DNA of 64,000 bases from Candidatus Iainarchaeum sp. Its GTDB lineage: Archaea > Iainarchaeota > Iainarchaeia > Iainarchaeales > VGJJ01. The notes beneath the pieces were generated by a model. The model searched no databases, was not told where the DNA came from, and saw only the letters and a program-made list of their open reading frames with translations. The first letter of the stretch is position 1. Every line of letters starts with the position of its first letter. The position numbers were made by a program, and so were the translations under genes. The DNA lies in the NCBI GenBank assembly GCA_016699555.1, contig CP064981.1:155456-219455 (forward strand), in the 5' to 3' direction. This document shows, piece after piece, positions 3,499-44,991 of this stretch.

Positions 3499-4733
3499 AT
3501 GGAGAAAAAATGGATTTTCTGGGGATTATGCGCTCTCCTGCTCACATTACCCCTCATCCAAGCAGCCACCTTCGCCACCACCCTCTTCGTGTGGAATGCC
3601 CCTGCCGGGACGCGAAGCTATACCCTCACCTACGGCGCCGCCTGCAATGCCAGCGCATTCTATTTCAATGAAGTCGACGCCAACTACGACCCCGACAACG
3701 ACGGAAACGCCGCACGCATCCCCCCACCGCCACGCTCGTGAGCGACAGCAACGTACTTGGAGACAGCTACAACTATGGAGGGATAAGCTCCCCTAGCGCC
3801 GGCCCGGTATACGCCTACCAACAGACCGGACTCAATAGCGACCCCTCCGACCTGAGCGAAGTCGCGACCGAATTCACATCCGATGAATACCTCAACATCG
3901 AAAACGTCGACGCAACCTATGTCGACGTCATCGAAACGGGTAGCGGCAGTTACATCGCCACCCAATACCGCATCGACTACGACCAAGACTATCGCCGCAT
4001 CAAGAAGACCACCGTCAACTATACCGGAGGCACCTTCATCAAAGTCAACGCGAACCCATGCATCAACGACACCACCGGAAACGAAGTCGATATGCGCGCT
4101 TACGCATGGAACTGGAGAACCAATGTGTTCGATCTCATCCAAACCGATAACGATAACCAAGGAGGCGGAATCAGCAGCGCCATCTTCACCCAACGCAGCA
4201 TCTCGCTCGACACCAACATCCGCGACTACGTCAATTCCGACGCAACCACCTATTTCATGCTCGCAGCAGGCCCCGTCAACACACTCGATGGATGCATGAC
4301 ACTCGACGAGCTCGATTTCGACGTCGAATATTACCCCGACACCAACGCATTCTGCCAAAGCGCAACCATCGCACCCATCACCATCACCAATGCAGGGGGA
4401 TCCAACCTCAACATCGACGGGAACTTCTCCACCGCATTCTCAGGAAACGACACCAACCTCGTACTGAAAGTATGGCAAGGAACAGGAAGCGGATGCGGAA
4501 CAGCAGGAATGGGAGGATGGGAAAAAAGACTGCAGCGTCACAAACGCACTCACCGACCTCGGAATGACCACGTGCAGACAATACAACCAAACAAACGCCA
4601 CCAGCAATGGAAGGCTCATCAGCGCGCTCTTGCCGGGAGACTCCAACCAGCTATGCTTCTCCGGCGACATCAACACCTTCACGCGCCGCGGAACCTACGT
4701 CAAGACATTCCAGATCGGCGACTACAACAGCTG
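3499..4733 (+). pseudogene. Secreted DxDxDG-motif surface protein paralog P1, interrupted by two frameshifts (about 3716-3741 and 4522-4527)
   Basis: Three ORF-track pieces (3436-3741, 3738-4769 and the tail to 4733) align colinearly with paralog P2. The shift points coincide with a C6 run (3720-3725) and an A6 run (4522-4527; P2 has A5 at the same place). Confidence 0.6.
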
Positions 4734-4774
4734 AGGCCGCGCAGTATTTTATTGCAGGATAAGCTCTGAATGGC

Positions 4775-6025
4775 ATGCACCCCTATACGCGCACCATACT
4801 CGGAATGGCGCTCCTTGCTCTGCTGATGATTCCCTTCGCCCACGCGCTGACAGGACTCTACAGCCAGACCATGACATGGAACATCCTGGCCAACCGCAGC
4901 CACAGCATCACCTACGGCGGAAGCTGCTCCGAGACCAGTTTCTATTTCAATGAAATCGACGCCAACTACGACCCCGACAACGACGGAAACGCCGCACGCA
5001 TTGCCCCAAGCTCCATCGCACGAACGCTTGGAACCACCACTGCGCAACGCGATTACAACTTTGTTGGAGTTACCGCTCCGAGCTCGACCAATATAGGGTA
5101 TCTTGGAGAGGTTGGAGTTTCCCCACCCACCACTATCGTGCCAGTAAGCACAGAATTCACGGACGATGAATACACCAATGCCATCGCAGCCGATTCAGCC
5201 GGCGTACAAACCATATCAACGGGAGGACAATACCCCTCCTTCAAAATCACATACAAGTCCGTCGTCTTGCCCGAAAAGACAACCGCTTTATCATTTCATT
5301 TCGTTGGAGTGAACATCCATAACGCTATTTGCGACGTCGAACCAACCGCGCCAGAGAGTGAAGGAATAGAGGGCGACATTAATTTCTTCCTATGGAACTT
5401 TCAAGAAAGCGAATATGAACGCATTGGACGCCACACCGGGACAGGAGTAGAAGGGACATACCCTGTCGAAAATGTTGATCAAACATACTTCGTGGATTTC
5501 AATCTCACACGATTCATCCATGCAACGGACCGCAACATTACGCTACTCATCCAAGGATCGTCGGACGCCAGTGTATTCTCATGCCTATACGGGGACATCA
5601 TCGAAATGTACCAACAATACTACTACGACAACAACGTCTTCTGCCAAAGCGCAACCATCGCGCCATTCACCATCTACAATAACGGAAACACCGACATCAA
5701 TGTCGACGGGAACTTCTCCAGCGCATTCTCAGGAAACGACACCAACCTCGTACTGAAAGTATGGCAAGGAACAGGAAGCGGATGCGGAACAGCAGGAATG
5801 GGAGGATGGGAAAAAGACTGCAGCGTCACAAACCCACAAACAGACCTAGGAACAAGCACATGCAGACAATACAACCAATCCAACGCCACCACCGCCGGAC
5901 GCCTCGTCAGCAATCTCGGAACAGGAGACTCCAACCAGCTATGCATGTCGGGAGACATCAACACCTACGTTGCAGGCGGCACCCACGCCAAAGAATTCGT
6001 CACCAATGACCGCAACGCAACATAG
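4775..6025 (+). CDS. Secreted DxDxDG-motif (putative Ca-binding) surface protein, paralog P2
   Basis: Signal peptide MHPYTRTILGMALLALLMIPFAHA. Conserved N-module TMTW..SITYGGSCS..FYFNEIDANYDPDNDGNAARI and C-module CQSATIAP..NVDGNFSSAFSGNDTNLVLKVWQGTGSGCGTAGMGGWEKDCSVT. The central region is variable. Confidence 0.7.
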   Translation: MHPYTRTILGMALLALLMIPFAHALTGLYSQTMTWNILANRSHSITYGGSCSETSFYFNEIDANYDPDNDGNAARIAPSSIARTLGTTTAQRDYNFVGVTAPSSTNIGYLGEVGVSPPTTIVPVSTEFTDDEYTNAIAADSAGVQTISTGGQYPSFKITYKSVVLPEKTTALSFHFVGVNIHNAICDVEPTAPESEGIEGDINFFLWNFQESEYERIGRHTGTGVEGTYPVENVDQTYFVDFNLTRFIHATDRNITLLIQGSSDASVFSCLYGDIIEMYQQYYYDNNVFCQSATIAPFTIYNNGNTDINVDGNFSSAFSGNDTNLVLKVWQGTGSGCGTAGMGGWEKDCSVTNPQTDLGTSTCRQYNQSNATTAGRLVSNLGTGDSNQLCMSGDINTYVAGGTHAKEFVTNDRNAT

Positions 6026-6057: not shown

Positions 6058-7311
6058 ATGCGACCGAATAATCTTGTTGTGGCGACACTATTCCTATTGC
6101 TCTGCGCCCCCCTCATCGCACACGCCGTCGAAAGCACCACCACCATGACGTGGATCATCATGCTCAATCGCGCGCACAGCATCACCTACGGCGGAAGCTG
6201 CTCGGACACCAACTTCCACTTCAAAGAAACGGACGCCAACTACGACCCGGACATCGATGGAAACGGAGCAAAAATCAAACCCAGCGCCAATCCAGGAACG
6301 AATCCACCCGCTTCAAGCACGTGGGATGAACAATTCGTCTCCTACTCCACGCCGTGCTCCAGCACAGGAAACAATTGTGCCTTCGATGTCAACCTCCAAA
6401 CATCACTCCCAACCTCAGCAGCAACTCATAATGCGGAGTTCGTGAGCACACAATACGACAACCTCGATCCGGTAGACGGCGCGGATGCCAACACCATTGC
6501 GAGCGTATCGGGAAGATTTCCCGCGCAAAAATTCGTATTCAAACTCGCAGGGAATGTCCACCCCCAACGCATTATTGACTTCAACTTCAGCTACCAAGGA
6601 TCGGCCATCGCAATGTCGAATGCAATCACCTGCGCCGATGGAGCGGGAACGGATCGGGACATGAATTTCTATATCTACAATTACACCAACTCCCAGTATG
6701 ACCTCGTCCTACAACGCACGGGGACAGGAGCAGCATATAGTGGAAACGCCCCTCGGGACGCCAATGCATACATGAGCATCAATCACTACACCCTCAGCGA
6801 TTACGTTGGAGTCGCACCCGACAACAACATCACATTCCTCGTACGAGGGGTCGATAACACTAGCACTGGCCGCTTCTCATGCGTCATCACGGACCGCATC
6901 GCACTGGCCTATCACACATACACCGAATCCACCTACTGTCAATCCTCCACCGTAGCACCCATGCGCATACGCAACGTCGGAAATACAGCCATCAACATTG
7001 ATGGAAACTTTAGCAGCGCATTCAGCGGAGTGGACACGAATATCGTATTGAAAGTATGGAGGGGAACCCCATTCTGCGGCAATACGGGATTCGGAGGGTG
7101 GGAAAAAGACTGCAGCGTCACGAGCACCACGATAGCGCCCGGCACCACTACCTGCAAGCAATTCAACCGATTCAACGCCACCACGTCCAGCAGACTTATA
7201 TCCAGCATTGCAGTAGATGGGAACGGCAGCCTCTGCTTCTCCGGAGACCTCAACGGGTTCGTTGGAGCAGGCAACCACGTCAAGACATTTCAAACCGGAA
7301 GCGGAGTATAG
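6058..7311 (+). CDS. Secreted DxDxDG-motif surface protein, paralog P3
   Basis: Signal peptide MRPNNLVVATLFLLLCAPLIAHA. Same N- and C-terminal modules as P2 around a different central insert. Confidence 0.7.
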   Translation: MRPNNLVVATLFLLLCAPLIAHAVESTTTMTWIIMLNRAHSITYGGSCSDTNFHFKETDANYDPDIDGNGAKIKPSANPGTNPPASSTWDEQFVSYSTPCSSTGNNCAFDVNLQTSLPTSAATHNAEFVSTQYDNLDPVDGADANTIASVSGRFPAQKFVFKLAGNVHPQRIIDFNFSYQGSAIAMSNAITCADGAGTDRDMNFYIYNYTNSQYDLVLQRTGTGAAYSGNAPRDANAYMSINHYTLSDYVGVAPDNNITFLVRGVDNTSTGRFSCVITDRIALAYHTYTESTYCQSSTVAPMRIRNVGNTAINIDGNFSSAFSGVDTNIVLKVWRGTPFCGNTGFGGWEKDCSVTSTTIAPGTTTCKQFNRFNATTSSRLISSIAVDGNGSLCFSGDLNGFVGAGNHVKTFQTGSGV

Positions 7312-7314
7312 GAT

Positions 7315-8169
7315 ATGCAATATACCACCATTCTAGCAACAACACTCCTCCTCGTCATTTTGGCAGGATGCACCAGCCCGGCGAATAACCCTGCAACTCC
7401 AACACCCGATACCAACCACGGATTGGTACCCACCCCTACGCTGCCACTCCGCGAGCACGCCATATTCCAGCAATACGCAACCACCAACGGAAAGACCATC
7501 CAAGAAACCCAAACGTTCTTCCACAACAATTACGGCATCGCCGAGAATGATATATTCGCACAACTCCCTTCCGTCCCAGCCACATTCCTCCAGGACGTCA
7601 ATACGCTGCACTATGGCAATGGACTTGGAACGAACCTCATCCCACGCGAAAGCTACCTCCAACCGGAGTTTTTCCCCACATTCAGCACAACAGGCATCCA
7701 GACATGGGCCAAAGCCCCTGATCAGTTCCCAAACACCGTCGGATTATCATCCACCCCCGCCGAACAGCAAGCCACGCTCGCCAGCGATAGCAATGGGTTC
7801 ACAACCACCCTTTTCATCGGAAGCGCGTGGGGAGTGACCTACTACCAAGGCATGGCTTTCCGTTATACCATCCAACCGGCAGCCGACATCCACCTCTCAT
7901 TCGATCCACCCCACATCCTCGCAGGACCCACATTCCCCGTATTCACCCCAGAATGGATGCATAAGATCACCGTCGACGGAACCATCGGAACCGATGTAGA
8001 GGAAGGAACCTACACCATCACCATCTACCCCGCCGATGCCCCCATCGAAGTCCAAGAGCAATGGTACGACGCACACCCACGCTATGTGAGCGGAAACGGA
8101 CTCATCGGGCCCAGCGATGGACTCGCCACATTCACTCTCACCATCCCGGCGCGCAACACCACCAACTAA
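7315..8169 (+). CDS. Lipoprotein (LAGC lipobox), hypothetical; C-terminal domain shared with the 40079-41184 gene
   Basis: MQYTTILATTLLLVILAGC is a signal peptide with a lipobox. The C-terminal ~110 aa is homologous to the C-terminus of the 40513-41184 frame. Confidence 0.6.
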   Translation: MQYTTILATTLLLVILAGCTSPANNPATPTPDTNHGLVPTPTLPLREHAIFQQYATTNGKTIQETQTFFHNNYGIAENDIFAQLPSVPATFLQDVNTLHYGNGLGTNLIPRESYLQPEFFPTFSTTGIQTWAKAPDQFPNTVGLSSTPAEQQATLASDSNGFTTTLFIGSAWGVTYYQGMAFRYTIQPAADIHLSFDPPHILAGPTFPVFTPEWMHKITVDGTIGTDVEEGTYTITIYPADAPIEVQEQWYDAHPRYVSGNGLIGPSDGLATFTLTIPARNTTN

Positions 8170-13855: not shown

Positions 13856-14236
13856 ATGGAATTGAACTACCTCGAACTCGTTTCCTGGTTCACACTAGTT
13901 TCGTTCCTCGCGCTTTATTTCTTTCCCGACTATCGCCTGTATGCGCTCGTCCTGTTCGCTTTCGGTTTTGGTTTTTGGCTTTCTTGGAGCGAGTTGCATA
14001 CGATTGAAGTGGTCGTGCTGACGTTGATCCCGCTTTTCTTGAGTGTGGTGCTGCTATTCCTTACCTCTATCTTCTTCCAGGTCTGGGATACGACGACTTC
14101 ATTCAATTCCTTTTGGGCGTCTGCAGGGATTGGAGTTCTGGTCTTGTTCGGGCTTGTTGCACTGGTGGGGATTCCATTCTCCTATCTGGCGACGTGGATC
14201 CGTCACTTCCTGTTTCCGGTGACGGACGACTTGTGA
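13856..14236 (+). CDS. Multi-pass membrane protein, hypothetical
   Basis: Four hydrophobic helices. Converges on and overlaps the tail of the large minus-strand gene. Confidence 0.4.
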   Translation: MELNYLELVSWFTLVSFLALYFFPDYRLYALVLFAFGFGFWLSWSELHTIEVVVLTLIPLFLSVVLLFLTSIFFQVWDTTTSFNSFWASAGIGVLVLFGLVALVGIPFSYLATWIRHFLFPVTDDL

Positions 14237-17200
14237 TGCGTTCGCTCGTGCGCGGGATGGATTTCATCGTAATGGGCTTAGGGTTTTTCTTTTTCCACCA
14301 GTGGAATATCCCTGCGCCGCCGACCGCGAATATGACTCCGAGCAATGGCAATGTTTTTTCGGGAAGCGTGGCGAGTCCGGTAATGTTTTGCTTCTTTGAT
14401 TCGGCGTAAGCGAGGAGATTCCTTCCCACGTAGATGGCCTTTCCGTATTCGTTTGCTTGCATCGCATCGCTTACCTTTTGGAGGTTGTCTTTCCATTCCG
14501 CTTCGGCGATATCATACTGTTCGAGTGCTTTTTGCATCTGTTCGGCTTGCTCCTGCAATGCTGAACGCGCGTCATCGATCCTTGTCGCAATCGCTTTCGT
14601 CCGCTCTTCGATGAGGGGCAGGTTAGCGGCGATAGGCAGTATCGCTTCTCGTTTGATATCTTTCTTCGCAAGCTGTTTCTCGGCATCGCGGAGTTCTTTT
14701 TGGAGATCTTCCAGTTCTTCTTTCAAATCCTTCAGTTGGTTCTCGCTCAGGGGGCAGATGAAGTTTGTCTCGAGCAATTTATTGCAGGTGATTCCAAGCT
14801 CTTTTCCATATGCTGCAGCGCCATCGCGTGCAGAAAGAATGGTTTGATTTACCTCTGCGGCTTTTCCGAGGGTGGTGTTCTTGATTTCGCCGTCGGTGGG
14901 GGTAGCGTTTACTGGGATTGCCGCCGCATTGGTGTCGTTCTGCTCGAGCCATGTCATGGCGTTCTCCGCGCCCAACAAATTATTTTCTTCCATGAATGTG
15001 TCGAATGCGCTGCGCTGCCTTTCCCATTCAGCCGTGTTTCCTGTAGCGATTGTGCTTTTTCGCGCGGTAAGGTTTGCTTTTTTTTGCCAGTGCAAGTTCT
15101 CTTCTACCGCGAGCGCATCGAGTTCTGCTTGCCACTTCTGTAGTCCTTCGGCCCACTTTTGGGGGTTATTGTCCCCACCCCACTGTTCGACGCGATGGCG
15201 TAATGCAATTGCCTTTGCTGCGATGTCGGCGAAAGGGCTGGAGGTGTATTGTTGGATTCCTTGCAGGAGATTTTCTTTCAGCACATTCCAGCTTTCGATC
15301 CCTTGGGGTTGGGCGATGAGGATGGTGAACGTTCGCATGCCATTGGCTCCAATTTCTTGGGACTGGATGCCGAGGCTCCCTTCGCCCGTAGTGTTCCATG
15401 GAATGGTCTCGCCCAATTCTCCCAAAACCTGTACTGAAAGGGTTTCGAGCGGGTCGATGCGAATTCCGGTGCTGGCGCTCAAGCGGAATGGTTTTGCTAC
15501 GCTATTTTTCCATGTCACGGTGTACGTCGTCGTCTGTATTCCCTCTTCTTCACGGGCGCCGGCGAGTGCAGTGGTGGTGCGGATGACGTCTTGGAATAGG
15601 GTGTCGACGAGAATCTTCGTCGTGGGGGTGCGCAAAGGGATGAGTATCGATCTGCCTTGTTCGAGCAAAGCGGTACTGTCTTCCACCCATATACTCATCG
15701 GAGCGGTTGCGCCGATTCCATATTTTTCGCGTTCGAGCGGCAGGGTGGTGTCGGCTTGCGCGCTTGCATTCAATGTCATGCGCACCCGTGCTTGGTTTCC
15801 GATAAGTTCGCCGATGGTAATGTCCTCCGTCAGCCGGACAGGGATTCCGCTTCCGCGTGCTTGGATCGTGATGGGTTCGTTCCATTCCGATAGGGAGAGC
15901 GCCACCACTTCTTGTTTTTCGGTCCATGCGACGTTGGATTCGATTATTTCCGCCGTGTATGGGATGTTTACCTCCAGCTCAAGCGGGAAGCGGATTGGTT
16001 TGCCGGCCGGGTTGCGCATTTTCCACTCCAATACCATCTCGGCGGGGGCGTTTCCTTCCACGCTTGCGGGGGCGATTATTTCCCATCTTTGTCTGGCGAC
16101 TAACTCTTGGAGCGCTTCGTGTATGCGTTCGCGTGCTTCGCGCAAGGCTTCTTCCATCTCACGTTGATTTTCCTGCAGTGCCGAGAAGGGTTGTGGGTGC
16201 GTGAGCGTATCGATGCGTTGCCTGAGTTTTTTGCCGCTCTCTTCAAAGCGTGTTCCGTTGGCGCCGCGCAACTGCAATTGGTCGATGAGCATGAGGGTCT
16301 CATGCGCTTCCTTTTGAGTGGTATTCCATTCCCGCACGGTGGTGCTCTGCAAGTAGGCCGTTTCCACATTCTGCAAGGCGCTTTTGCAGGCGGAGTGAGC
16401 GAGCGCTGGGTCGCCATGATTGGATGCCAACCACTCCTCTTCCGATAAGGCGTTTCCGATGCGCATGCTTTCGGCGTACAGTCGTGTTCTTTCGACGCAT
16501 GCGGCGAATGCGTGTTTCTGTGCGATGATGAGTGCGGGTGCCGTAATAGTCGTCTTGTTCTCTTCGAGTTGGTGTAAAAGCGCGGCGCAGTATCCCCATT
16601 TCTTTTCCGTTTTGGCCTCGACTAGCTCTTTGGCGGCTAATCGCAATGAAGGGGATTCGTTGCTGCTGATGCTTTTGGCGAGCTCGTCACAGGCCGATTG
16701 GATTGGCGCTTGAGCGGCCTGATATGCGGCGATTTCCTGTTGCCATGCGACAAGGTTTTTTTCCCATGCTCTCCATTCCATGATGCGTTTTCCGAGCGCA
16801 AGGTTTTGTGCGCTTTCCTGCTCGATACGCTCTTTCCACTCGATTAGCGTCTGCAATTCGGCACGAAGCGCGGTGAAATCGTTTGCGGTTATCGTGCTAT
16901 GAAATGCCGGATTCCATGCCTCCAGCAAATGATAATTTTGACTTTCATTTTCTAGGATGGTTTCGATCTCGACGATTTGGTTTTCCGCCGCGAGGATTTT
17001 GGGTGTTGCTTCGGAGGCGTGTGCCGTTTCTTCTTTCTCCAATTCTTCTATTCCTTCTTCGATGGCGCGGATGTGCTGCATGATTCCGGCGTGAATTCCG
17101 TTGGTGGGCGCAAGCGCTGCTTCTGCGTGATAAATCATCTCGCTCGCTACCAATTCCTCAAGCACTTGGAGTCCTTTGACTGCGTTCTTGCGTGTGCGCA

Positions 17201-17939
17201 TGGAATTGAGGAAACTATTCCATGTGGGGAAGAACGCGATGATGAGCTTGCCGCTGTTTCCTGGTTCGAGGATTTTAGTCGGGGTCTTCAGCAGATCAAA
17301 TCCTCTGGCGGTGTCGATCGCATATGCGTTGGATTCTTTTCCGCTGATGCGCTGCGCGAGCGTTCCGAAGTAGCGGGTGTTGGTTTGCACTTTCTGCGCT
17401 AATGCACTGTGTGGGGTTTGGTTCTTGACTTCTTGGATGAATTCGACGGCTTTGGCGTAGGATTGGAATGCCGCCGAGTCTCTTACGCTGTTCAACTCGG
17501 CGCGTTCGGCTGCTTGCATGGTCTGTTGGAGCGCTTGCCAGGAATAGATCTGGCTCCTTTCGCTGTACAAGAGCGCCTCTCCGAGTGCGGTTCCGGCCAA
17601 TTGGGATTGATTCCATAATTCGCCGATCGTCCCATTGGTGCAGGCCGCTCTCACTTTCTGGAGCTTTTGCGTTGCATCGGTGAGGCGTAGCCATCCATTG
17701 ATGGTTTGGCTTTCGGCGCGCTCGACGAGGATGGAACTGTTCGTCTTGGTTCCGATTCCGCTCGCTTGTGTTTTCCGAAAAAGCGTCTGGCAAGCGGGGG
17801 CGGTCGTGCAAGGTTGCATGTGCGTGAGCTCCGCGCTGCTGGCGCGCAGGCAGGCAGCGGTCTCTCCCGCTGTGAGTTTGGCATCGAGGCATCCTGCGAC
17901 GACGATGAGGAGTATGATGAAGAATAGGGCCTTCTGCAT
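14103..17939 (-). CDS. Very large (about 1278 aa) coiled-coil-rich surface lipoprotein with a C-terminal TM anchor
   Basis: MQKALFFIILLIVVAGC is a signal peptide with a VAGC lipobox. Long A/E/Q/L-rich helical regions follow. C-terminal TM LLGVIFAVGGAGIFHWWKKK plus a cytoplasmic tail. The track start is GTG; the ATG is at 17939. Confidence 0.7.
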   Translation of the reverse strand: MQKALFFIILLIVVAGCLDAKLTAGETAACLRASSAELTHMQPCTTAPACQTLFRKTQASGIGTKTNSSILVERAESQTINGWLRLTDATQKLQKVRAACTNGTIGELWNQSQLAGTALGEALLYSERSQIYSWQALQQTMQAAERAELNSVRDSAAFQSYAKAVEFIQEVKNQTPHSALAQKVQTNTRYFGTLAQRISGKESNAYAIDTARGFDLLKTPTKILEPGNSGKLIIAFFPTWNSFLNSMRTRKNAVKGLQVLEELVASEMIYHAEAALAPTNGIHAGIMQHIRAIEEGIEELEKEETAHASEATPKILAAENQIVEIETILENESQNYHLLEAWNPAFHSTITANDFTALRAELQTLIEWKERIEQESAQNLALGKRIMEWRAWEKNLVAWQQEIAAYQAAQAPIQSACDELAKSISSNESPSLRLAAKELVEAKTEKKWGYCAALLHQLEENKTTITAPALIIAQKHAFAACVERTRLYAESMRIGNALSEEEWLASNHGDPALAHSACKSALQNVETAYLQSTTVREWNTTQKEAHETLMLIDQLQLRGANGTRFEESGKKLRQRIDTLTHPQPFSALQENQREMEEALREARERIHEALQELVARQRWEIIAPASVEGNAPAEMVLEWKMRNPAGKPIRFPLELEVNIPYTAEIIESNVAWTEKQEVVALSLSEWNEPITIQARGSGIPVRLTEDITIGELIGNQARVRMTLNASAQADTTLPLEREKYGIGATAPMSIWVEDSTALLEQGRSILIPLRTPTTKILVDTLFQDVIRTTTALAGAREEEGIQTTTYTVTWKNSVAKPFRLSASTGIRIDPLETLSVQVLGELGETIPWNTTGEGSLGIQSQEIGANGMRTFTILIAQPQGIESWNVLKENLLQGIQQYTSSPFADIAAKAIALRHRVEQWGGDNNPQKWAEGLQKWQAELDALAVEENLHWQKKANLTARKSTIATGNTAEWERQRSAFDTFMEENNLLGAENAMTWLEQNDTNAAAIPVNATPTDGEIKNTTLGKAAEVNQTILSARDGAAAYGKELGITCNKLLETNFICPLSENQLKDLKEELEDLQKELRDAEKQLAKKDIKREAILPIAANLPLIEERTKAIATRIDDARSALQEQAEQMQKALEQYDIAEAEWKDNLQKVSDAMQANEYGKAIYVGRNLLAYAESKKQNITGLATLPEKTLPLLGVIFAVGGAGIFHWWKKKNPKPITMKSIPRTSERITSRPSPETGSDGSTSPDRRMESPPVQQARTRPELQSLQTPKRN

Positions 17940-17989
17940 GCAGCCTGGATGCACGGGTTCATGTTAAAAATCTAGGGAAAATTGCGCGG

Positions 17990-32582: not shown

Positions 32583-34073
32583 ATGCTTCATGGCAATATC
32601 GAGTCCTATTCGATCAAGTCCGACATTGATGTGGGGGTCGACATCACCTATGACGAAGCCGGTTTCGTGAAACGCTACATGCTCCGCGTTCCGGAGTTCG
32701 GGCCAGGAACGAGGGCGATGCTCAACAATCTGAAGAGCAAGGTGATTTCGGACGTCAACGTGTCGGGAGACAAACTGCTCGATGTCAAGTTCGTGGAAGA
32801 AATGAAAGGACACTTCCGCACCAAGGCACGGGCGCTCATGGAAGTGCAGCTGCCCGAGATTCCATTGGAACAACGCGACAAGCTGATTGCAGTCATTATC
32901 CACGAAATGGTGGGGTTAGGCTACATCGAGTTCATGCTCGATGACGGGAATCTCGAAGAAATCGTGGTGAACAGCGCCGAGGAACCGGTGTGGGTGTACC
33001 ACAAAAAGTATGGCTGGCTCAAGAGCAACATCTTCATCTCTCCCGAGGCGGAGATCCAGAATTATGCGAGTATTATCGCGCGCCGCGTGGGGAAGCAGGT
33101 CACGATCCTGAATCCCTTGCTGGATGCGCACTTGGTCACGGGCGATCGTGCCAATGCGTCGTTGCATCCCATTTCCTCGCGCGGAAACACGATTACGATC
33201 CGTCGTTTTCGCCGCGATCCATGGACGGTTACGGATTTCATCAATGGGGGGACGGGAAGCGCCGAGCTGATGTCGTTGATATGGTTGGCGATGGAGTATG
33301 AATTGAACATCATGGTTTCCGGTGGTACTGGAAGCGGAAAGACGACGTTGCTGAATGTCATGATGCCCTTCATCCAACCCAACCAGCGTGTGCTGACCAT
33401 CGAAGATACGCGCGAACTGCAGCTTCCCGAATTCCTGCACTGGGTGCCCATGACGACGCGCGAGCCCAATGCGGAGGGCAAGGGACAGATTTCCATGCTG
33501 GACCTGCTCGTCAATGCCTTGCGTATGCGCCCGGACCGCATCATCGTGGGTGAAGTCAGAAGACAGAAGGAAGCCGAAGTGATGTTCGAAGCCATGCACA
33601 CCGGGCATGCGGTTTACGCTACGGTGCACGCAAACACGGCGGAAGAGACCATCCAACGCTTGACGTCTCCGCCTATCGAAATCGCGCCTTCATTGTTGGA
33701 AGCGGTCCACTTGAACGCGGTCATGTTCCGCAATCGTCGGTTGGGCGTGAGAAGGATCCTCCAACTGGCCGAATTCGTCCCCATGAAGTCCGGGGCACAA
33801 GGAGGCACGACGCTGAAACCCAATATCCTTTTCCGCTGGCGCGCGCAGACGGATACGATCGAGAAATACGCGGAAAGCATCCGCCTGTTCGATGAATTGG
33901 CGCTGCACACGGGTTATACGGCCCAAGAGATCAATCAGAATCTCAGCGAGAAACAGCGCGTGCTCGAATACATGATGCGCGAGAAGATCCGCGACATCAA
34001 TGAGGTGGGGATGGCGATCGCGCAATACTATTCCGATCCCGAAGTCATATTCAAGAAAGCGGGGATCCGTTGA
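32583..34073 (+). CDS. Type IV pilus/archaellum assembly ATPase (FlaI/TadA/CpaF family, secretion NTPase)
   Basis: Walker A VSGGTGSGKTTLLN, Asp box, Walker B RPDRIIVGEVR, His box EAMHTGHAVYATVHAN. The track start is GTG; the first ATG is at 32583. Confidence 0.9.
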   Translation: MLHGNIESYSIKSDIDVGVDITYDEAGFVKRYMLRVPEFGPGTRAMLNNLKSKVISDVNVSGDKLLDVKFVEEMKGHFRTKARALMEVQLPEIPLEQRDKLIAVIIHEMVGLGYIEFMLDDGNLEEIVVNSAEEPVWVYHKKYGWLKSNIFISPEAEIQNYASIIARRVGKQVTILNPLLDAHLVTGDRANASLHPISSRGNTITIRRFRRDPWTVTDFINGGTGSAELMSLIWLAMEYELNIMVSGGTGSGKTTLLNVMMPFIQPNQRVLTIEDTRELQLPEFLHWVPMTTREPNAEGKGQISMLDLLVNALRMRPDRIIVGEVRRQKEAEVMFEAMHTGHAVYATVHANTAEETIQRLTSPPIEIAPSLLEAVHLNAVMFRNRRLGVRRILQLAEFVPMKSGAQGGTTLKPNILFRWRAQTDTIEKYAESIRLFDELALHTGYTAQEINQNLSEKQRVLEYMMREKIRDINEVGMAIAQYYSDPEVIFKKAGIR

Positions 34074-34085
34074 GGCGGTGGAAAG

Positions 34086-34979
34086 ATGATCTATCGCTTC
34101 TCCATGCCATTGAACGTATTGCCCATGCCCATGCTGCGCTGGGCCAGCAAGCGACTCATCGGATTGGGCACGCAGTTCGGGAAGATATTCCCTGTATCGG
34201 ACGCCGACATGCGGCGCGCGAGTATCCCTGTCTCGTCCAAAGAGTATGCGACGATGTCTCTTGTGATTATCGCATTCTACTTCGTCTTTTTCTTCCTCGT
34301 CTTCTATACGATCAGCTACCGCGTCTTCGGGACGCTCAATCCTGTCCTCCCCGTCGTCGTGAGCGCGGTGTTCGGGATCCTGGTGATGGTGCAATTGGTC
34401 GCGTATCCCGTCATCCAGATCAAGAAGAAGGTCCGCGACCTCGACCGCAATCTGGTTTTTGCGCTGCGCACGCTCCTCGTGCAACTGCGTTCGGGCGTAA
34501 GCTTGTTCGATTCGATGAAAGTGGTGGCGGAAGGGAATTACGGCGCTGTTTCGACGGAGTTCCACAAGGCGGTGGAGCAGATCAACACGGGGACGATCCA
34601 AGAGGCGGCGTTAGAACGCATCGCGGAGAACAATCCGAGCATCTATTTCCGCCGTACTATCTGGCAAGTCGTCAACGGCATGCGCGCGGGCGCGGATATC
34701 ACGCAAGTGCTCGCGGAGAGCGTGGATTCATTGACGGATGCGCAGTCCATCCAGATCCGCAACTATGAAAGCCAGATGAAGATCCTCTCGCTCGTGTACA
34801 TGATGTTAGGCGTTATCGTGCCAGCGTTAGGGATCACGTTCTTGATCGTGCTGTCTTCGTTCCCCCAAATCACGATTACGGATGTGTATTTCTGGGTGCT
34901 GCTGACGTTCGTGGGAATCGGGCAGTTCATGTACATGGGTATCGTCAAGAGCAAACGCCCATCGCTGTTGGGAGACTGA
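34086..34979 (+). CDS. Pilus assembly membrane protein with a T2SS-F domain (TadB-like, FlaJ N-half-like)
   Basis: T2SSF-type stretch NLVFALRTLLVQLRSGVSLFDSMKVV...AVEQINTG flanked by TM helices. Confidence 0.8.
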   Translation: MIYRFSMPLNVLPMPMLRWASKRLIGLGTQFGKIFPVSDADMRRASIPVSSKEYATMSLVIIAFYFVFFFLVFYTISYRVFGTLNPVLPVVVSAVFGILVMVQLVAYPVIQIKKKVRDLDRNLVFALRTLLVQLRSGVSLFDSMKVVAEGNYGAVSTEFHKAVEQINTGTIQEAALERIAENNPSIYFRRTIWQVVNGMRAGADITQVLAESVDSLTDAQSIQIRNYESQMKILSLVYMMLGVIVPALGITFLIVLSSFPQITITDVYFWVLLTFVGIGQFMYMGIVKSKRPSLLGD

Positions 34980-36001
34980 TGCGCATGCCTTCTTTCCGGG
35001 TCGAACTGCCATTCTTGCGTGGGATCTATGCGGCATTCGAGAAGCAATTCATGTATTTGGGCCTGAAGATCTCGGCGCGCAAGTATGTGATGAACACGCT
35101 CATCTTCAGCTTCGTGCTGGGAGTGATTGCGGTCTTTTTGGGCCTGACCACGTTCAACTTGGGGATTATCTTCAGCATCATCGCGGGAATCAGTACGATA
35201 GTGGGGATGATCGGGGCGATGTACATGCTCCTGGACCTTTCCGCCGATGGTCGTGGGAAAAAAGTGGAGTCGATCCTGCCGGATGCGTTGCAGCTCATCG
35301 CAAGCAACATCAAATCGGGCTTGACGACCGAGCGTGCACTGTTGATGAGCGCGCGCCCGGAGTTCGGGCCGTTGGAAACGGAACTGCGACGCGTTTCCGC
35401 GAAGATCTATTCGGGTTCGCCGGTGGAGCATGCGATCCTCGAGATCCCTAAACACATCAAGTCCACACTCCTCGAGCGCACGACGTGGTTGTTGGCGCGC
35501 GGTATCTCTTCCGGCGGAGAAATCGCGGATCTCCTCATGCAGCTCTCGCACAACCTGCGAAAGCAATTGGCGTTGCAATCGGAAGCGAGCGCGTCCATCT
35601 CCATCTATGTCATCCTCATCTTCTTCTCTGCCGCGTTCGGGGGGCCTGCGCTCTATGCGGTTTCTTCTTTCATCGTAGAGGTGATGACGGCGCAGACGGG
35701 TTCCACTCCTGCCATCGATCCGGGAACGATCGCTTCGGCAGGGAGCCGTTTTGCGGGATTGAGTGGCTTTGTCAGCGGAAAGGCCAGCATCATTTCGCCG
35801 GACTTCATCGTGTTTTTCTCGCAAGTCATGTTATTCGTGGGAGGGGTATTCGCTTCGCTCATCCTTGGAGCGATCGCCACCGGAAAGGAAAAGGACGGGA
35901 TGAAGTATTTGCCCGTGATGCTATTGGTCTCTTTCGGCTTGTTCTTCCTGATCCGCGCCGTCATGCATGCGGCATTCGGTCCACTGCTGTTGAATCAGTA
36001 G
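34979..36001 (+). CDS. Pilus assembly membrane protein with a T2SS-F domain (TadC-like, FlaJ C-half-like)
   Basis: LPDALQLIASNIKSGLTTERALLMSA...ELRRVSAKIYSG plus several TM helices. ATGA overlap with the TadB-like gene. Confidence 0.8.
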   Translation: MRMPSFRVELPFLRGIYAAFEKQFMYLGLKISARKYVMNTLIFSFVLGVIAVFLGLTTFNLGIIFSIIAGISTIVGMIGAMYMLLDLSADGRGKKVESILPDALQLIASNIKSGLTTERALLMSARPEFGPLETELRRVSAKIYSGSPVEHAILEIPKHIKSTLLERTTWLLARGISSGGEIADLLMQLSHNLRKQLALQSEASASISIYVILIFFSAAFGGPALYAVSSFIVEVMTAQTGSTPAIDPGTIASAGSRFAGLSGFVSGKASIISPDFIVFFSQVMLFVGGVFASLILGAIATGKEKDGMKYLPVMLLVSFGLFFLIRAVMHAAFGPLLLNQ

Positions 36002-37442: not shown

Positions 37443-38066
37443 ATGCCCTCCGATACCAAAGGCGTTGGAAACCAATTGTGGACGGACGACAAGCTGATCG
37501 ATTTCCTGAAGCCCGGAAAAGAGCAGGAGTCCAAGCTCGCATCGCAACTGTCGCAATTACCTGCCGGCACGAGCGGCCTGCTCATCGTGCCGTCGAACCA
37601 ATACTCCATCATCCCGCGCGCCGTCATGGAATATTTTTCTCAGAAGAACATTCCCGGCGTTTATGTCTGCGTGAACCGTCCTTATCTCGATCTCGTGCGC
37701 GGCAACAATCCTTCTTCCGGGATCAAGTTCGTCGACGTGGTTACGGCGCTCACGGGAAAAGAGCTCACGGAGCTGCCCAACGTCCAATACCTGGATTCGC
37801 CTCTCGCGTTGGTGGAAATGGACATGGCGATCTCGGAGAACATGCAGAACATCGCGAGCAACCAGAAATTCCTCTTCGTGGACTCGGTTTCAACGCTACT
37901 GGTGTACAACTCTCCTCAAGCCGTGGAGAAATTCTGTCACACCATCATCAGCAAGAACCGCAACGCTTCCACGCTCGTGATATTGTTGGCCCTCGACACG
38001 GTCGAGCACAAGAACGTGTTGGATTCGCTGCACCAATTCGTCGATCAATCCATCGTGTTGCATTAG
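37443..38066 (+). CDS. Hypothetical protein, possibly a degenerate RecA/KaiC-like fold without a P-loop
   Basis: Alternating beta/alpha pattern (FLFVDSVSTLLVY...TLVILLALDT) but no Walker A. The overlapping 334-aa ORF in another frame is Arg-rich junk. Confidence 0.35.
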   Translation: MPSDTKGVGNQLWTDDKLIDFLKPGKEQESKLASQLSQLPAGTSGLLIVPSNQYSIIPRAVMEYFSQKNIPGVYVCVNRPYLDLVRGNNPSSGIKFVDVVTALTGKELTELPNVQYLDSPLALVEMDMAISENMQNIASNQKFLFVDSVSTLLVYNSPQAVEKFCHTIISKNRNASTLVILLALDTVEHKNVLDSLHQFVDQSIVLH

Positions 38067-39250: not shown

Positions 39251-39352
39251 GCCATTCACGCGCCTAAGGATGGGGACAATGAACCTAAAATGCGCACACA
39301 TTTATAAACTGCAAAAGGTTCTTCCAGCTATTCTGTGTTGGGGTTTTGTACT

Positions 39353-39988
39353 ATGCGACTGCTAAATGTGTTTGCTATCTGCGGATTGGCTCTATTGGTC
39401 ATGGCGACGTTTGCCTCGGCGAATGTCGTTACGACGACGATGACATGGTTCGTTGCTTCATCGAAGTCCATCAGTGTCGCGTATGGTTCTCCTTGTACGT
39501 CGAGCGCATTCATCTTCAATGAGACGAATGCCATCTACGATCCCGATAGCGACGGGAATGCTGCCCGCGTCGTGCCTCAAGCCACGCGTGTTGGGCCGGG
39601 CGACAGCAATTGCCAGTCCTCTTCGCAAGCTGCGATTACCGTTACGAGCGCAGGAACGGCTAGCACGAATGTCGATGCTAACTTTGCCGCCGCATTCTCG
39701 GGTGCGGATGTCAACATCGTTTTGAAAGTCTGGCAAGGGAGCAGCGGATGCGGGACTGCGGGATTAGGCGGATGGGAGAAGGACTGTACCGTAACAGGCA
39801 CTACGAGCGCCCCCAACACCACGACGTGTAAGAACTTCAATTCCAGCAATGCTATTGCGGGTTCGCGTGTCATTACGAGTTTGGCCGTGTTTTCATCCAC
39901 GCAGCTATGCTTTTCGGGAGACTTCAACACCTACGTCGGTGCAGGAGATCACAACGCGAGCTTCCAGCTCGGGTCCGAATTCAGTTAA
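39353..39988 (+). CDS. Short paralog (P4) of the secreted DxDxDG-motif family, with the N- and C-modules fused and no variable insert
   Basis: MRLLNVFAICGLALLVMATFASA + TMTW..SVAYGSPCTSSAFIFNETNAIYDPDSDGNAARV + CQSSSQAAITV..NVDANFAAAFSGADVNIVLKVWQGSSGCGTAGLGGWEKDCTVT. Confidence 0.65.
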   Translation: MRLLNVFAICGLALLVMATFASANVVTTTMTWFVASSKSISVAYGSPCTSSAFIFNETNAIYDPDSDGNAARVVPQATRVGPGDSNCQSSSQAAITVTSAGTASTNVDANFAAAFSGADVNIVLKVWQGSSGCGTAGLGGWEKDCTVTGTTSAPNTTTCKNFNSSNAIAGSRVITSLAVFSSTQLCFSGDFNTYVGAGDHNASFQLGSEFS

Positions 39989-40078: not shown

Positions 40079-41184
40079 ATGATGACTTCCGAATCCGACG
40101 TTTCTACATCGCACCACACATCGACCGAGCACGCGCATTCAGCGCCCGCTGCGCATCATACTTCGCCTCCAAAACGCACGATGCCTCTCCCCCTCATCGC
40201 GGCGGGAGTGTTGATCCTCTTGATTGCTGGTGCATGGTATTTCTCGAGCGCTGCTGCTCCTGTTCCAGCTCCTGTTACGGGTACGGACACTCCTTCCCCG
40301 ACGCTTGCCCCCTCTGTGGAGGATCGCACCTCCACCGAAACGCTTACCTTTACCCAACGCGTGGAACGCAATGAATCCCTCAAGCGCACACTCACCAAAG
40401 CCAAGTACACGCGCGAAATCTATAGCATCGATCGCCGCGGCTACGACCTCTTCGAGTCCGCCGCCAATTTCACCGACAGCTCATTAGACGAGATCAAGGA
40501 GTTCTACCTCAATTGCTGCGATTTGACTTCCGAGGAAGACATCTTCGCCGATCTGCCTCCCATTCCAAGCGACTTCGCAGCCGTTGCATACGATATCGCG
40601 ACCGGTTCCTTGCTCCAACTGGGGCAAATCACGAAGGGCTATTACTTGCAACCCGAGTTCTATTTCCATGTAGGCGAAACGGCCGGGGCCAATCGCCGAA
40701 TCGCTTTCCGTGCATGGTCGCAGCCCGAATTGCAATACTGGGGGACAATGGCCACCTCTCCTATCCCAACACCCAATGGGGATCGCTCGTGAAAAGCAAA
40801 GAGAATGTCGCGCGCGCGGTCGTATTCTACGCGGCGGGCTGGAACATCCAGAATTATCAAGGCCTCATGCTCGTCCCTACTGCGGACTCCAAGAAATATT
40901 TTGACATCGAAATCCAAGCCGATTCGACTGCACAGCCCTACTTCCTGCTCGGGCCCACATTCCCTCGCTTCGACAAGCAATGGGCGGAAAAAGTCGTCAT
41001 CACGGTGCGTGCAAAACCCGACACGCCACCGGGCGAATACACTGTTGGACTCAACCCCGCAACGCCTCCAAAAGAAATCAATGAGAAATGGTCATCCGAC
41101 CACAAGGGATTGTACTTCGGCGGCCGCGGAGCGATTTCACCTGAAGGAAATCAGATTGACCTCGTCATCAACGTCCAAGAATAA
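40079..41184 (+). pseudogene. Membrane-anchored paralog of the 7315 lipoprotein, interrupted by a frameshift near a G-run at about 40737-40765
   Basis: The frame from 40079 (MMTSESD..TM helix..YLQPEF..WSQPELQY) ends at 40792. The frame from 40513 continues with PNTQWGSL...ILLGPTFPRFDKQW...EYTVGL, homologous to the C-terminal domain of 7315-8169. Confidence 0.55.
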
Positions 41185-43816: not shown

Positions 43817-44293
43817 ATGTCTCAAGCTGAAGCCACGCGCATTCAACATCTCTTGAAAGAAAAGAATATCCCATTCGAGCACATGGTGCACGCGCCCGTG
43901 TATACTTCCGAGCAAGCCATGCAGGCACGCAAGGGAGAATTGCACAATGGGGTAAAGGCCATGGTGTTGGAAACAGAACGCGGGATCGTTCTCGCGTTGC
44001 TGGCGGCCGACCTGAAAATGGATTTGGATGCGTTCGCAAAACTAATGGAATTCAAAAAAGTCAAACTCGCGAGCAAAGAAAAAGTATTGGAGTGCACGGG
44101 CTGCGAGCCGGGCTCCGTTCCCCCATTCGGGTTCGAACCGCCCCTTCCAACGTACCTCGATGAGACCATTTTCGACCATGAGTGGGCGGAATTCAATATC
44201 GGACTGTTAACGGAAAGCATCAAGATGAAAACAAGCGATTTACGCTTGGTTTTACCGCAACGACTGCTGAAATTCGCGAAGAAGATGCAATAA
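43817..44293 (+). CDS. YbaK/ProX-family aminoacyl-tRNA deacylase (Cys-tRNA(Pro)/Ala-tRNA(Pro) editing)
   Basis: YbaK-domain pattern including TGCEPGSVPPFGF and NGVKAMVLE. Confidence 0.75.
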   Translation: MSQAEATRIQHLLKEKNIPFEHMVHAPVYTSEQAMQARKGELHNGVKAMVLETERGIVLALLAADLKMDLDAFAKLMEFKKVKLASKEKVLECTGCEPGSVPPFGFEPPLPTYLDETIFDHEWAEFNIGLLTESIKMKTSDLRLVLPQRLLKFAKKMQ

Positions 44294-44310
44294 AACCCCG
44301 TAAATCCCAG

Positions 44311-44545
44311 CGAAAGGAGTTATCGGGTACTCTTTGGAGTATCCGTTCTCGTACCGCACAGCCGAAACTGTGCATCGGCCTTTGATAAAGGCCGGCGAAA
44401 GGAGTTATCGGGTACTCTTTGGAGTACCCGTTCTCGTACCGCACAGCCGAAACTGTGCATCGGCCTTTGATAAAGGCCGGCGAAAGGAGTTATCGGGTAC
44501 TCTTTGGAGTACCCGTTCTCGTACCGCACAGCCGAAACTGTGCAT
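44311..44545. repeat. Tandem repeat: 2.75 copies of an 85-bp unit, each with three hairpins; ends in TTTTTT
   Basis: Units start at 44311, 44396 and 44481 (the last truncated at 65 nt), with one mismatch between copy 1 and 2. Hairpins: cgggtactc-tttg-gagtacccg, gcacag-ccgaaa-ctgtgc, ccggccttt-gat-aaaggccgg. Confidence 0.85.
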
Positions 44546-44634: not shown

Positions 44635-44991
44635 ATGACACACGAAGTCCCTAACGACCTGAAAGAGAAACAGAACGAATTCCTTTCGGATTTGAAGAAA
44701 AAGCACGGAAAGAGCCGTATCGGGATCAATGAAGTCACGAAGGCCATCGAGCGCGATACCGCCAAGATCGTTTTCGTCGCCAAAGACGTTTCCCCTGCGG
44801 AAGTCGTCATGCACTTGCCTTTGATCTGCAAAGAAAAGAAAGTCCCTTTCTCCTACGTCGACACGAAGAAAGAATTGGGCGAAAAGATCGGCATCGCCGT
44901 TGGTGCAGCCGCCGTCGCTGTCACGGATTTGGGCGAATCCCAAAAAGAATTCGATGTCATCGTCAAACGCTTGCACGAGCTGGCGAAATAA
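44635..44991 (+). CDS. rpl7ae: Ribosomal protein L7Ae
   Basis: KSRIGINEVTKAIERDTAKIVFVAKDVSP...KKVPFSYVDTKKELGEKIG. Confidence 0.9.
   Translation: MTHEVPNDLKEKQNEFLSDLKKKHGKSRIGINEVTKAIERDTAKIVFVAKDVSPAEVVMHLPLICKEKKVPFSYVDTKKELGEKIGIAVGAAAVAVTDLGESQKEFDVIVKRLHELAK

Follow-up and report, generated by a model that had tools for sequence, protein, structure and literature searches.

Programmed -1 and +1 ribosomal frameshifting is exemplified by bacterial dnaX and prfB, and we know of no gene that combines two opposite programmed shifts. Nor, to our knowledge, has phase variation been established in any archaeon. SSR-based phase variation of surface proteins is described in bacteria such as Neisseria, Campylobacter and Haemophilus, and homopolymer switches in the Mycobacterium tuberculosis complex (PMC11868660, PMC10334774); according to a review, its distribution across archaea is still to be mapped (PMC11868660). 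Frame changes at homopolymers also arise from sequencing. In consensus sequences of the Nanopore R9.4.1 chemistry, homopolymer indels disrupt gene calls and short-read polishing is required (PMC9262707), residual errors in repeat regions often outlast such polishing (Polypolish paper, PMC8812927), and the gain from polishing is mostly reached by 25x, many polishers introducing errors at low depth (Bouras et al., 10.1101/2024.03.07.584013). We examined three single-base frame breaks in two genes of an archaeon, P1 and P4b, and conclude that they are probably consensus errors left in a Nanopore-based MAG and probably not features of the organism.

The window, by which we mean the whole 64,000-nt stretch of DNA that was analysed, derives from CP064981, the circular Iainarchaeota genome of MAG Fred_18-Q3-R57-64_BAT3C.431, recovered from activated sludge of the Fredericia wastewater plant (Singleton et al. 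2021; PMC8012365, Supplementary Data 3). Its reads came from PromethION R9.4.1 sequencing (R9 FLO-PRO002 flow cells) with Guppy 2.2.3 flip-flop basecalling, and they were assembled with CANU 1.8; polishing was by Racon, by medaka in two rounds and finally by a single Racon round that used Illumina reads (PMC8012365). Mean depth was 18.9x for Nanopore (npcov) and 9.49x for Illumina (ilmcov), and the genome-wide polymorphic rate of the MAG is very low, at 1.7e-4 (PMC8012365). A preliminary description of the window had offered two explanations for the breaks, slipped-strand phase variation or systematic homopolymer errors in the assembly. Since this is a low-coverage Nanopore R9.4.1 assembly with a single round of Illumina polishing at 9.5x, we find error the better supported of the two, although in a sporadic form only.

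The first gene, P1, is laid out as follows:

3499-4734, + strand: P1 whole gene, from ATG 3499 to TGA 4732-4734
3499-3725, + strand: P1 segment 1, frame 1 (MEKK...GNAARIPP), signal peptide and conserved N-terminal block
3720-3726, + strand: frameshift site 1, CCCCCCA, one base short by ortholog comparison
3726-4526, + strand: P1 segment 2, frame 0, variable middle domain and beginning of the conserved C-terminal domain
4522-4527, + strand: frameshift site 2, A6 run with one A extra, A5 in nine other genes
4528-4734, + strand: P1 segment 3, frame 1 (DCSVTN...GDYNS and stop), C-terminal end

Segment 1 aligns with residues 1-75 of the intact orthologs P0002, P0003 and P0004. When frame 1 is read past the C6 run (3720-3725), a stop is reached at TGA 3739-3741. 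The family sequence resumes instead in frame 0 at ACC 3726 (TATLVSDSN...), and this continuation means that one base is missing, confirming the break that had been noticed at this run. At the same site the orthologs read ATCCCCCCAACA (L001), GTCCCCCCAACC (L004) and ATCCCTCCGACG (L003), and the window reads ATCCCCCCACCG; in codons, the three orthologs have ATC CCC CCA ACA, GTC CCC CCA ACC and ATC CCT CCG ACG, and the window has ATC CCC CCA CCG. Judged by this alignment, the lost base would be either the seventh C (C7 to C6) or one A of the following AA.

These sites bear directly on phase variation, under which P1 and P4b would be slipped-strand contingency loci whose tract length varies among cells and switches surface proteins on and off, the assembly having caught the OFF state. 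We consider this very unlikely. The tracts do fall within coding regions, and the encoded proteins are secreted or membrane proteins of the kind that such switching usually affects (PMC11868660); a single-base change does move the reading frame, and the C6 tract is common to two of the three P1 orthologs. Yet the remaining ortholog writes the same Pro-Pro as CCT CCG, without a tract.

The second break in P1 was likewise as had been described. Segment 2 runs to ...GMGGWEK, its last codon being AAA 4524-4526, and P1 re-enters frame 1 at GAC 4528 (DCSVTN...), so that one A of the A6 run is surplus and the frame goes from 0 back to 1. Nine genes of the P1/P2/P3 type (P2 and P3 of the window and seven in the relatives L001, L003 and L004) have A5 at this place, as GG(A/G)TGGGAAAAAGACTGCAGC / TGGGAAAAAGAC. 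The paralog P2 had been said to carry A5 within an otherwise identical block, and direct comparison bears this out: P1 4433-4545 (113 nt) and P2 5722-5833 are identical save for the extra A, and the A5 of P2 lies at 5811-5815. Here too the evidence runs against phase variation, in that the A5 stems from a W-E-K-D motif that is conserved, with nine other genes having it in frame, and in that two independent P1 tracts would have to be corrected together. Segment 3 shows 74-83% identity to the orthologs. The two shifts cancel out, and the total of 1236 nt equals the length of two orthologs. In GenBank, this region is represented by the CDS IPJ89_00935 (3738-4769; 343 aa), which has an 80-residue out-of-frame tail.

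A pair of opposite shifts in one gene could also be read as programmed ribosomal frameshifting, with a -1 shift on C CCC CCA at site 1 and a +1 shift on AAA A GAC at site 2. Site 1 formally matches the X XXY YYZ heptamer, the P-site Lys codon of site 2 can re-pair one base downstream, and the in-frame AGA that follows accounts for 7% of Arg codons in the genes of the window. However, P0002, P0003, P0004 and all paralogs are single-frame genes in which the shift is not conserved, and folding of the 80 nt 3' of each site is no stronger than that of shuffled sequence (z = +0.59 and -1.02). On this ortholog evidence, and with RNA structure at no more than chance level, we rejected programmed frameshifting, to which we give a negligible probability.

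The intact members of the two families in the window are:

4775-6025, + strand: P2, intact paralog, 416 aa, IPJ89_00940 (translation, GenBank)
6058-7311, + strand: P3, intact paralog, 417 aa, IPJ89_00945 (precomputed Pfam PF27237, AF_1625_C)
7315-8169, + strand: P4, intact lipobox protein, 284 aa, LAGC, last gene of the P1-P3 cluster
39335-39988, + strand: short P paralog, intact, 217 aa, N-terminal block and C-terminal domain with no variable middle

P1, P2 and P3 share one layout: a signal peptide that looks cleavable, a conserved block at the N-terminus, a middle that varies, and a conserved C-terminal domain rich in Cys. Precomputed annotation assigns this last domain to PF27237, with matches listed for P3 (P0017) and 13 homologs. 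Our local Pfam copy, which apparently does not contain this model, returned no PF27237 match for P2 or P3; the homology of P1 to PF27237-type proteins is clear (E = 1e-57 to 1e-157). In its AlphaFold model (mean pLDDT 76), P2 is rich in beta structure, the variable middle being the most confident stretch, and the fold bears a weak resemblance to phage receptor-binding baseplate proteins, lectins and carbohydrate-binding modules (TM ~0.3). The model would fit a secreted binding protein, a function that a predicted fold of this kind does not prove. The short paralog at 39335-39988 shares 82% identity with a 217-aa ortholog in L002. We also considered whether 37443-38066 and 39335-39988 were a single P gene split by an insertion, which was rejected as 39335-39988 is complete and has this 217-aa ortholog.

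The second broken gene, P4b, lies in the same window:

40079-40743, + strand: P4b segment 1, frame 2, N-terminal tail, one membrane helix and conserved domain to ...QYWG
40740-40744, + strand: frameshift site 3, G5 run, one base short by ortholog comparison
40744-41184, + strand: P4b segment 2, frame 1 (DNGHLSYP...VINVQE and stop TAA 41182-41184), by family alignment

Frame 2 ends at TGG GG (40739-40743), tblastn alignments change frame at 40741-40744, and the continuation in frame 1 from GAC 40744 implies that one base is missing. A break near a G4 run at 40740-40743 had been reported; the break is present, but the run is G5 and extends to 40744. Orthologs have TGGGGAGAC (L002, L044) or TGGGGCGAT (L042, L043) where the window has TGGGGGAC, and in the four of them the codons are TGG GGA GAC or TGG GGC GAT, the Gly codon being GGA or GGC. 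From these alternatives, either G6 became G5 or the third base of the Gly codon would have been dropped. The idea that every break falls at a mononucleotide tract thus holds in that all three lie in or against runs, with the reservation that the base lost at sites 1 and 3 may have been adjacent to the run. Similarly, the designation of 40079-41184 as a lipoprotein paralog is right in that P4b is a paralog of the lipobox protein P4, but P4b is not itself an obvious lipoprotein: it lacks a lipobox cysteine and carries a membrane helix at its N-terminal end. GenBank holds its 236-aa N-terminal piece as IPJ89_01125.

Undoing the three indels gave a P1 protein of 411 aa and a P4b protein of 368 aa. 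A search with corrected P1 found three full-length orthologs (411-415 aa; 56-58% identity; 100% coverage), and corrected P4b found about 40 homologs, mostly of 325-398 aa. Both corrected proteins are collinear with intact orthologs across 100% of their length. Corrected P1 retains 46 of 46 invariant and 18 of 19 near-invariant family positions, and corrected P4b retains 36/36 and 36/37, including all of those downstream of the shift (17/17 invariant and 19/19 near-invariant). Corrected P1 stands at 56-58% identity to each ortholog, and the orthologs stand at 55-59% among themselves, with the same picture segment by segment. We found no nonsense codon, lost invariant residue, longer branch or other lesion in P1 or P4b that would indicate degeneration.

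This conservation has to be set against a serious rival to consensus error, which the preliminary description had mentioned only as a refuting condition, namely that the breaks are fixed and the genes very young pseudogenes. Under this explanation, which we regard as possible though unlikely, real slippage mutations (two in P1 and one in P4b) were recently fixed in redundant, fast-evolving secreted-protein families, where the loss of a copy is tolerated and selection removes the same mutations from housekeeping genes. Compared with intact orthologs, the frame of each gene is disrupted, and further degeneration is absent, a combination still compatible with very recent inactivation. Because no decay is seen (all invariant residues kept, no nonsense codons, a branch that is not lengthened), pseudogenization would have to be very recent, with an age that we roughly estimate at less than about 2-3% neutral divergence. 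In its favour, a second lesion would be neutral once the gene was dead, and homopolymers are natural indel hotspots (PMC3315296).

Relatives offered a further comparison, through the loci L001, L002, L003, L004, L042/L043 and L044 (five syntenic loci and one short contig with a P1 ortholog) in SPAdes or MEGAHIT-style contigs and Logan contigs. Between relatives, P1-P4 share ~45-80% amino acid identity and P4b 58-70%, and the flanking genes mostly share ~83-99%, with HSP20 at 68%. The P1-P4 and P4b loci therefore diverge much faster than their neighbours, which is a point for the pseudogene reading. Nevertheless, complete genes of the two families are intact in 16 of 16 cases in relatives, as opposed to 4 of 6 in the window. 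That none of the 16 is broken weighs against young pseudogenes; that none has an out-of-frame tract, with no length variants at the same sites, weighs against phase variation. Among ~60 database homologs, none looks internally truncated, apart from the pieces from the window and P0023, P0030 and P0064, which are short or contig-end fragments.

We also looked for the same strain in other data. Exact look-up of the P2, P3, IPJ89_00935, TFIIE-alpha and Trm56 proteins yielded no independent contig of it, and the searches with corrected P1 and P4b had nearest matches of 58% and 72%, the window's own pieces aside. P3 is listed as present also in one Logan assembly. A scan of GTDB representatives, a set that does not include CP064981, returned only the relative L002. 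Lastly, a scan of JGI metagenomes for GGATGGGAAAA, 0-3 bases and GACTGCAG, aimed at a tally of A4/A5/A6/A7 alleles among family members, gave 37 matches, all of them chance matches in unrelated sequence.

We then took a census of homopolymers in the window, which holds 305 runs of at least 5 nt occupying ~2.6% of its length. Each of the three shifts is of exactly one base and lies in or against a run of 5-6 nt, a coincidence greater than chance would give at this coverage. In all other coding genes, every run of at least 5 nt is in frame (229/229), and these include 12 runs of 7-8 nt in genes such as aIF5B, Kae1, DnaK, L24e, DCD and that of a 1283-aa protein. The six genes of the two families hold 18 runs of at least 5 nt, 3 of them at breaks, so that 3/18 family runs are out of frame versus 0/229 other coding runs (hypergeometric p = 3.3e-4). 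The breaks cluster in P1 and P4b even among equally fast-diverging genes (p = 0.003), a set that includes the 1283-aa gene with its T8 and T7 runs. This confinement to two genes of paralogous secreted-protein families, with 229 other coding runs in frame, speaks for the pseudogene reading, and clustering in dispensable genes is the pattern that selection on real mutations would produce. The argument is softened by the class itself, since in this window 'surface protein' is a wide category, and one picked post hoc. Moreover, were all three breaks real, the window would be left without any residual coding indel error, which would be somewhat unexpected at this platform and depth.

Run lengths in the window follow its composition. 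There are 77 runs of at least 6 nt against 71.7 +/- 9.7 expected from first-order Markov simulations, and 16 of at least 7 nt against 20.7 expected, such that long runs are not depleted. The broken tracts, at 5-6 nt, occur at the frequency predicted by composition; the long tracts by which contingency loci are recognized (PMC11868660) are therefore not what we see here. The very low polymorphic rate of the MAG (1.7e-4) also counts against phase variation. Slipped-strand phase variation, as put forward earlier, is consequently not supported, given composition-typical tracts, the 16 of 16 in-frame genes in relatives and the need to correct two tracts in P1. That a DPANN (Iainarchaeota) archaeon switches a hypervariable, secreted, lectin-like family by slippage of short homopolymers we likewise find highly improbable. 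If they did prove real, with heterogeneous lengths, the breaks would give a rare indication that phase variation occurs in Archaea, but the evidence points elsewhere.

Gene integrity over the rest of the window was assessed gene by gene, comparing 1-12.5 kb with L001, 11-30.5 kb with L045, and 29.4-49.9 kb with L002, L042 and L044. Some 54 genes are single collinear segments relative to their counterparts, and a change of frame was found in P1 and P4b only. In the remaining 14 kb, S6e, eIF2-gamma, PIN, RpoE, S24e, S27ae, Rce1, Kae1, GrpE and DnaK match Pfam models end to end or nearly so, and models are likewise spanned by L7Ae, S28e, L24e, NDK, dUTPase, DCD and aIF5B. Apparent frame switches at 22.6, 25.3, 43.5, 45.2, 46.8, 52.5, 53.6 and 59.7 kb proved to be ordinary gene boundaries, formed by ATGA overlaps or by separate small ribosomal-protein genes. 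Systematic error, which would be spread over homopolymers and hit longer tracts more, is not the pattern within the window, and with 229/229 other runs in frame this part of the original proposal falls away. Nor do the housekeeping genes compared in the window carry such frameshifts, a check that had been suggested, and none of them is broken. The caution extended to other gene calls is likewise not borne out here, given the 229 in-frame runs, the ~54 collinear genes and the 10 intact genes checked by Pfam; outside P1 and P4b the gene calls of the window are sound, with no homopolymer damage, and this includes the translation and chaperone genes.

Weighing these observations together, we infer that Nanopore error is the most likely source of the breaks, on the strength of the platform, the orthologs and the conservation. 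The platform and low polishing depth, the +/-1 changes at homopolymers, the lack of decay and the intact relatives all support an artefact. On the other side, errors should be likeliest in the longest runs, yet all 12 of 7-8 nt are in frame, and two breaks within a single 1.2-kb gene are unusual for independent errors. In the scenario that we favour, an R9.4.1-type assembly would have started with many +/-1 errors in or beside homopolymers, of which short reads would have mended nearly all in the window. At three positions the repair may have failed or added an error, perhaps through low local short-read depth. Three residual indels per 64 kb is about what the chemistry and depth would lead one to expect, by a rough estimate.

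Reads belonging to the near-identical blocks of P2 may also have interfered at the two sites in P1. A 46-nt block adjoining site 1 is identical between P1 (3674-3719) and P2 (4956-5001). However, a 150-nt read is longer than either block that P1 and P2 share (46 and 113 nt), which leaves mis-mapping as a weak cause at most, and we set it aside as the main one. Site 3 sits in unique sequence; mis-mapping between P1 and P2 explains little of the whole, a point that counts towards real mutations.

If the breaks are consensus errors, both proteins would be intact in the cell, P1 as a secreted protein of 411 aa and P4b as a membrane-anchored one of 368 aa. Because both genes are most likely unbroken in the organism, the breaks are probably unimportant as biology. 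Their importance lies in data quality: the broken pieces IPJ89_00935 and IPJ89_01125 stand as ordinary proteins in GenBank and UniRef, and work on DPANN secreted-protein families that uses the CP064981 gene calls would be misled.

Set beside the described systems, the two genes differ in what they share with each. As in frameshifting of the dnaX and prfB type, P1 has a slippery-looking heptamer at site 1 and, at site 2, a rare Arg codon after a Lys codon that can re-pair; unlike in those genes, the shift occurs in no ortholog or paralog and downstream structure is at chance level. With SSR contingency loci they share a mononucleotide tract inside the gene of a secreted or membrane protein and a one-base frame switch, but the tracts are short, are not conserved as tracts, and two are off in one gene. 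Young pseudogenes of surface proteins are a likeness in that the frame is lost relative to orthologs and the genes are paralogous, probably dispensable and located in hypervariable islands; against this likeness, the two genes have no further lesions, relatives have no broken members, and the platform offers a simpler cause. Compared with residual indels of R9.4.1 assemblies, the breaks in the window depart from the type in not being spread over the many longer homopolymers, in being clustered in two genes, and in including an insertion at a tract only 5 nt long. They resemble such indels in chemistry and workflow, in being +/-1 changes at or beside homopolymers that break gene calls after polishing with 9.5x short reads, in that two of the three sites touch paralog-repeated sequence, and in affecting genes that are otherwise perfectly conserved.

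The secreted-protein genes P1 to P3, the lipobox-protein gene P4 that closes their cluster and the P4 paralog P4b have diverged from their nearest relatives far more than most of their neighbours have. Compared with L001 and L002, two loci from related genomes, P1 to P4 (3499-8169) retained 45-80% amino-acid identity, depending on the segment, and P4b (40079-41184) retained 58-70%. Flanking genes of both loci were mostly about 83-99% identical to their nearest relatives, including TFIIE-alpha (96.6%) and a FlaI-like ATPase (98%). The P1-P4 and P4b loci are variable islands within an otherwise conserved gene order. Another gene in the window also diverged strongly:

14103-17954, minus strand: gene of a 1283-aa protein without a Pfam match

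Against its ortholog in L045, a further related locus, this protein reached just 51% identity, compared with 80-100% for neighbouring genes, and its gene is unbroken although T8 and T7 runs are present. It is a further hypervariable gene, and its product is probably surface-exposed.

P1 and P2 contain two perfectly identical stretches of DNA (3674-3719 = 4956-5001 and 4433-4545 = 5722-5833), outside of which the two genes are about 85% or less identical. In addition, the string TGGGAAAAAGACTGCAGC is kept, synonymous sites included, across P1, P2 and P3 of several genomes. Together, the identical blocks and this conservation at synonymous sites suggest either that the paralogs have undergone gene conversion or that the nucleotide sequence itself is constrained.

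Public annotation treats the broken pieces of P1 and P4b as ordinary proteins, both of which have been propagated into UniRef:

3738-4769: P1 piece, IPJ89_00935 / QQR92792.1, 343 aa including an 80-residue out-of-frame tail
about 40079-40792: P4b piece, IPJ89_01125, 236 aa

Two further features lie upstream of P4b:

32583-36001: archaeal type IV pilus-like or secretion ATPase (T2SSE) and two T2SSF membrane proteins
39335-39988: "mini" P-family member, 217 aa, an N-terminal conserved block and a C-terminal domain

In the mini member these two parts are fused directly, without the variable middle. It is kept in four relatives at 211-217 aa, invariably directly upstream of a P4b-type gene. The T2SSE/T2SSF genes lie a few kb upstream of this pair, an order kept in the related loci L002 and L042 and, to the limit of the contig, in L044.

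Beyond P4b, a repeat separates a tRNA-editing-domain gene (43817-44293) from L7Ae (44635-44991):

44310-44545: tandem repeat, 85-nt unit, 2.8 copies, 99% matching

Every 85-nt unit contains several short inverted repeats. The same slot in relatives is occupied by a gene for a 279-299 aa protein (L042 14224-15123; L044 10961-11800), which is absent from the corresponding slot in the window.

The predicted structure of P2 (4775-6025) is rich in beta-sandwich. Its best structural matches were weak (best E = 3e-5, TM about 0.3) and comprised Staphylococcus phage phi812 baseplate proteins, MAM and ephrin-receptor ligand-binding domains, legume lectins and carbohydrate-binding modules.
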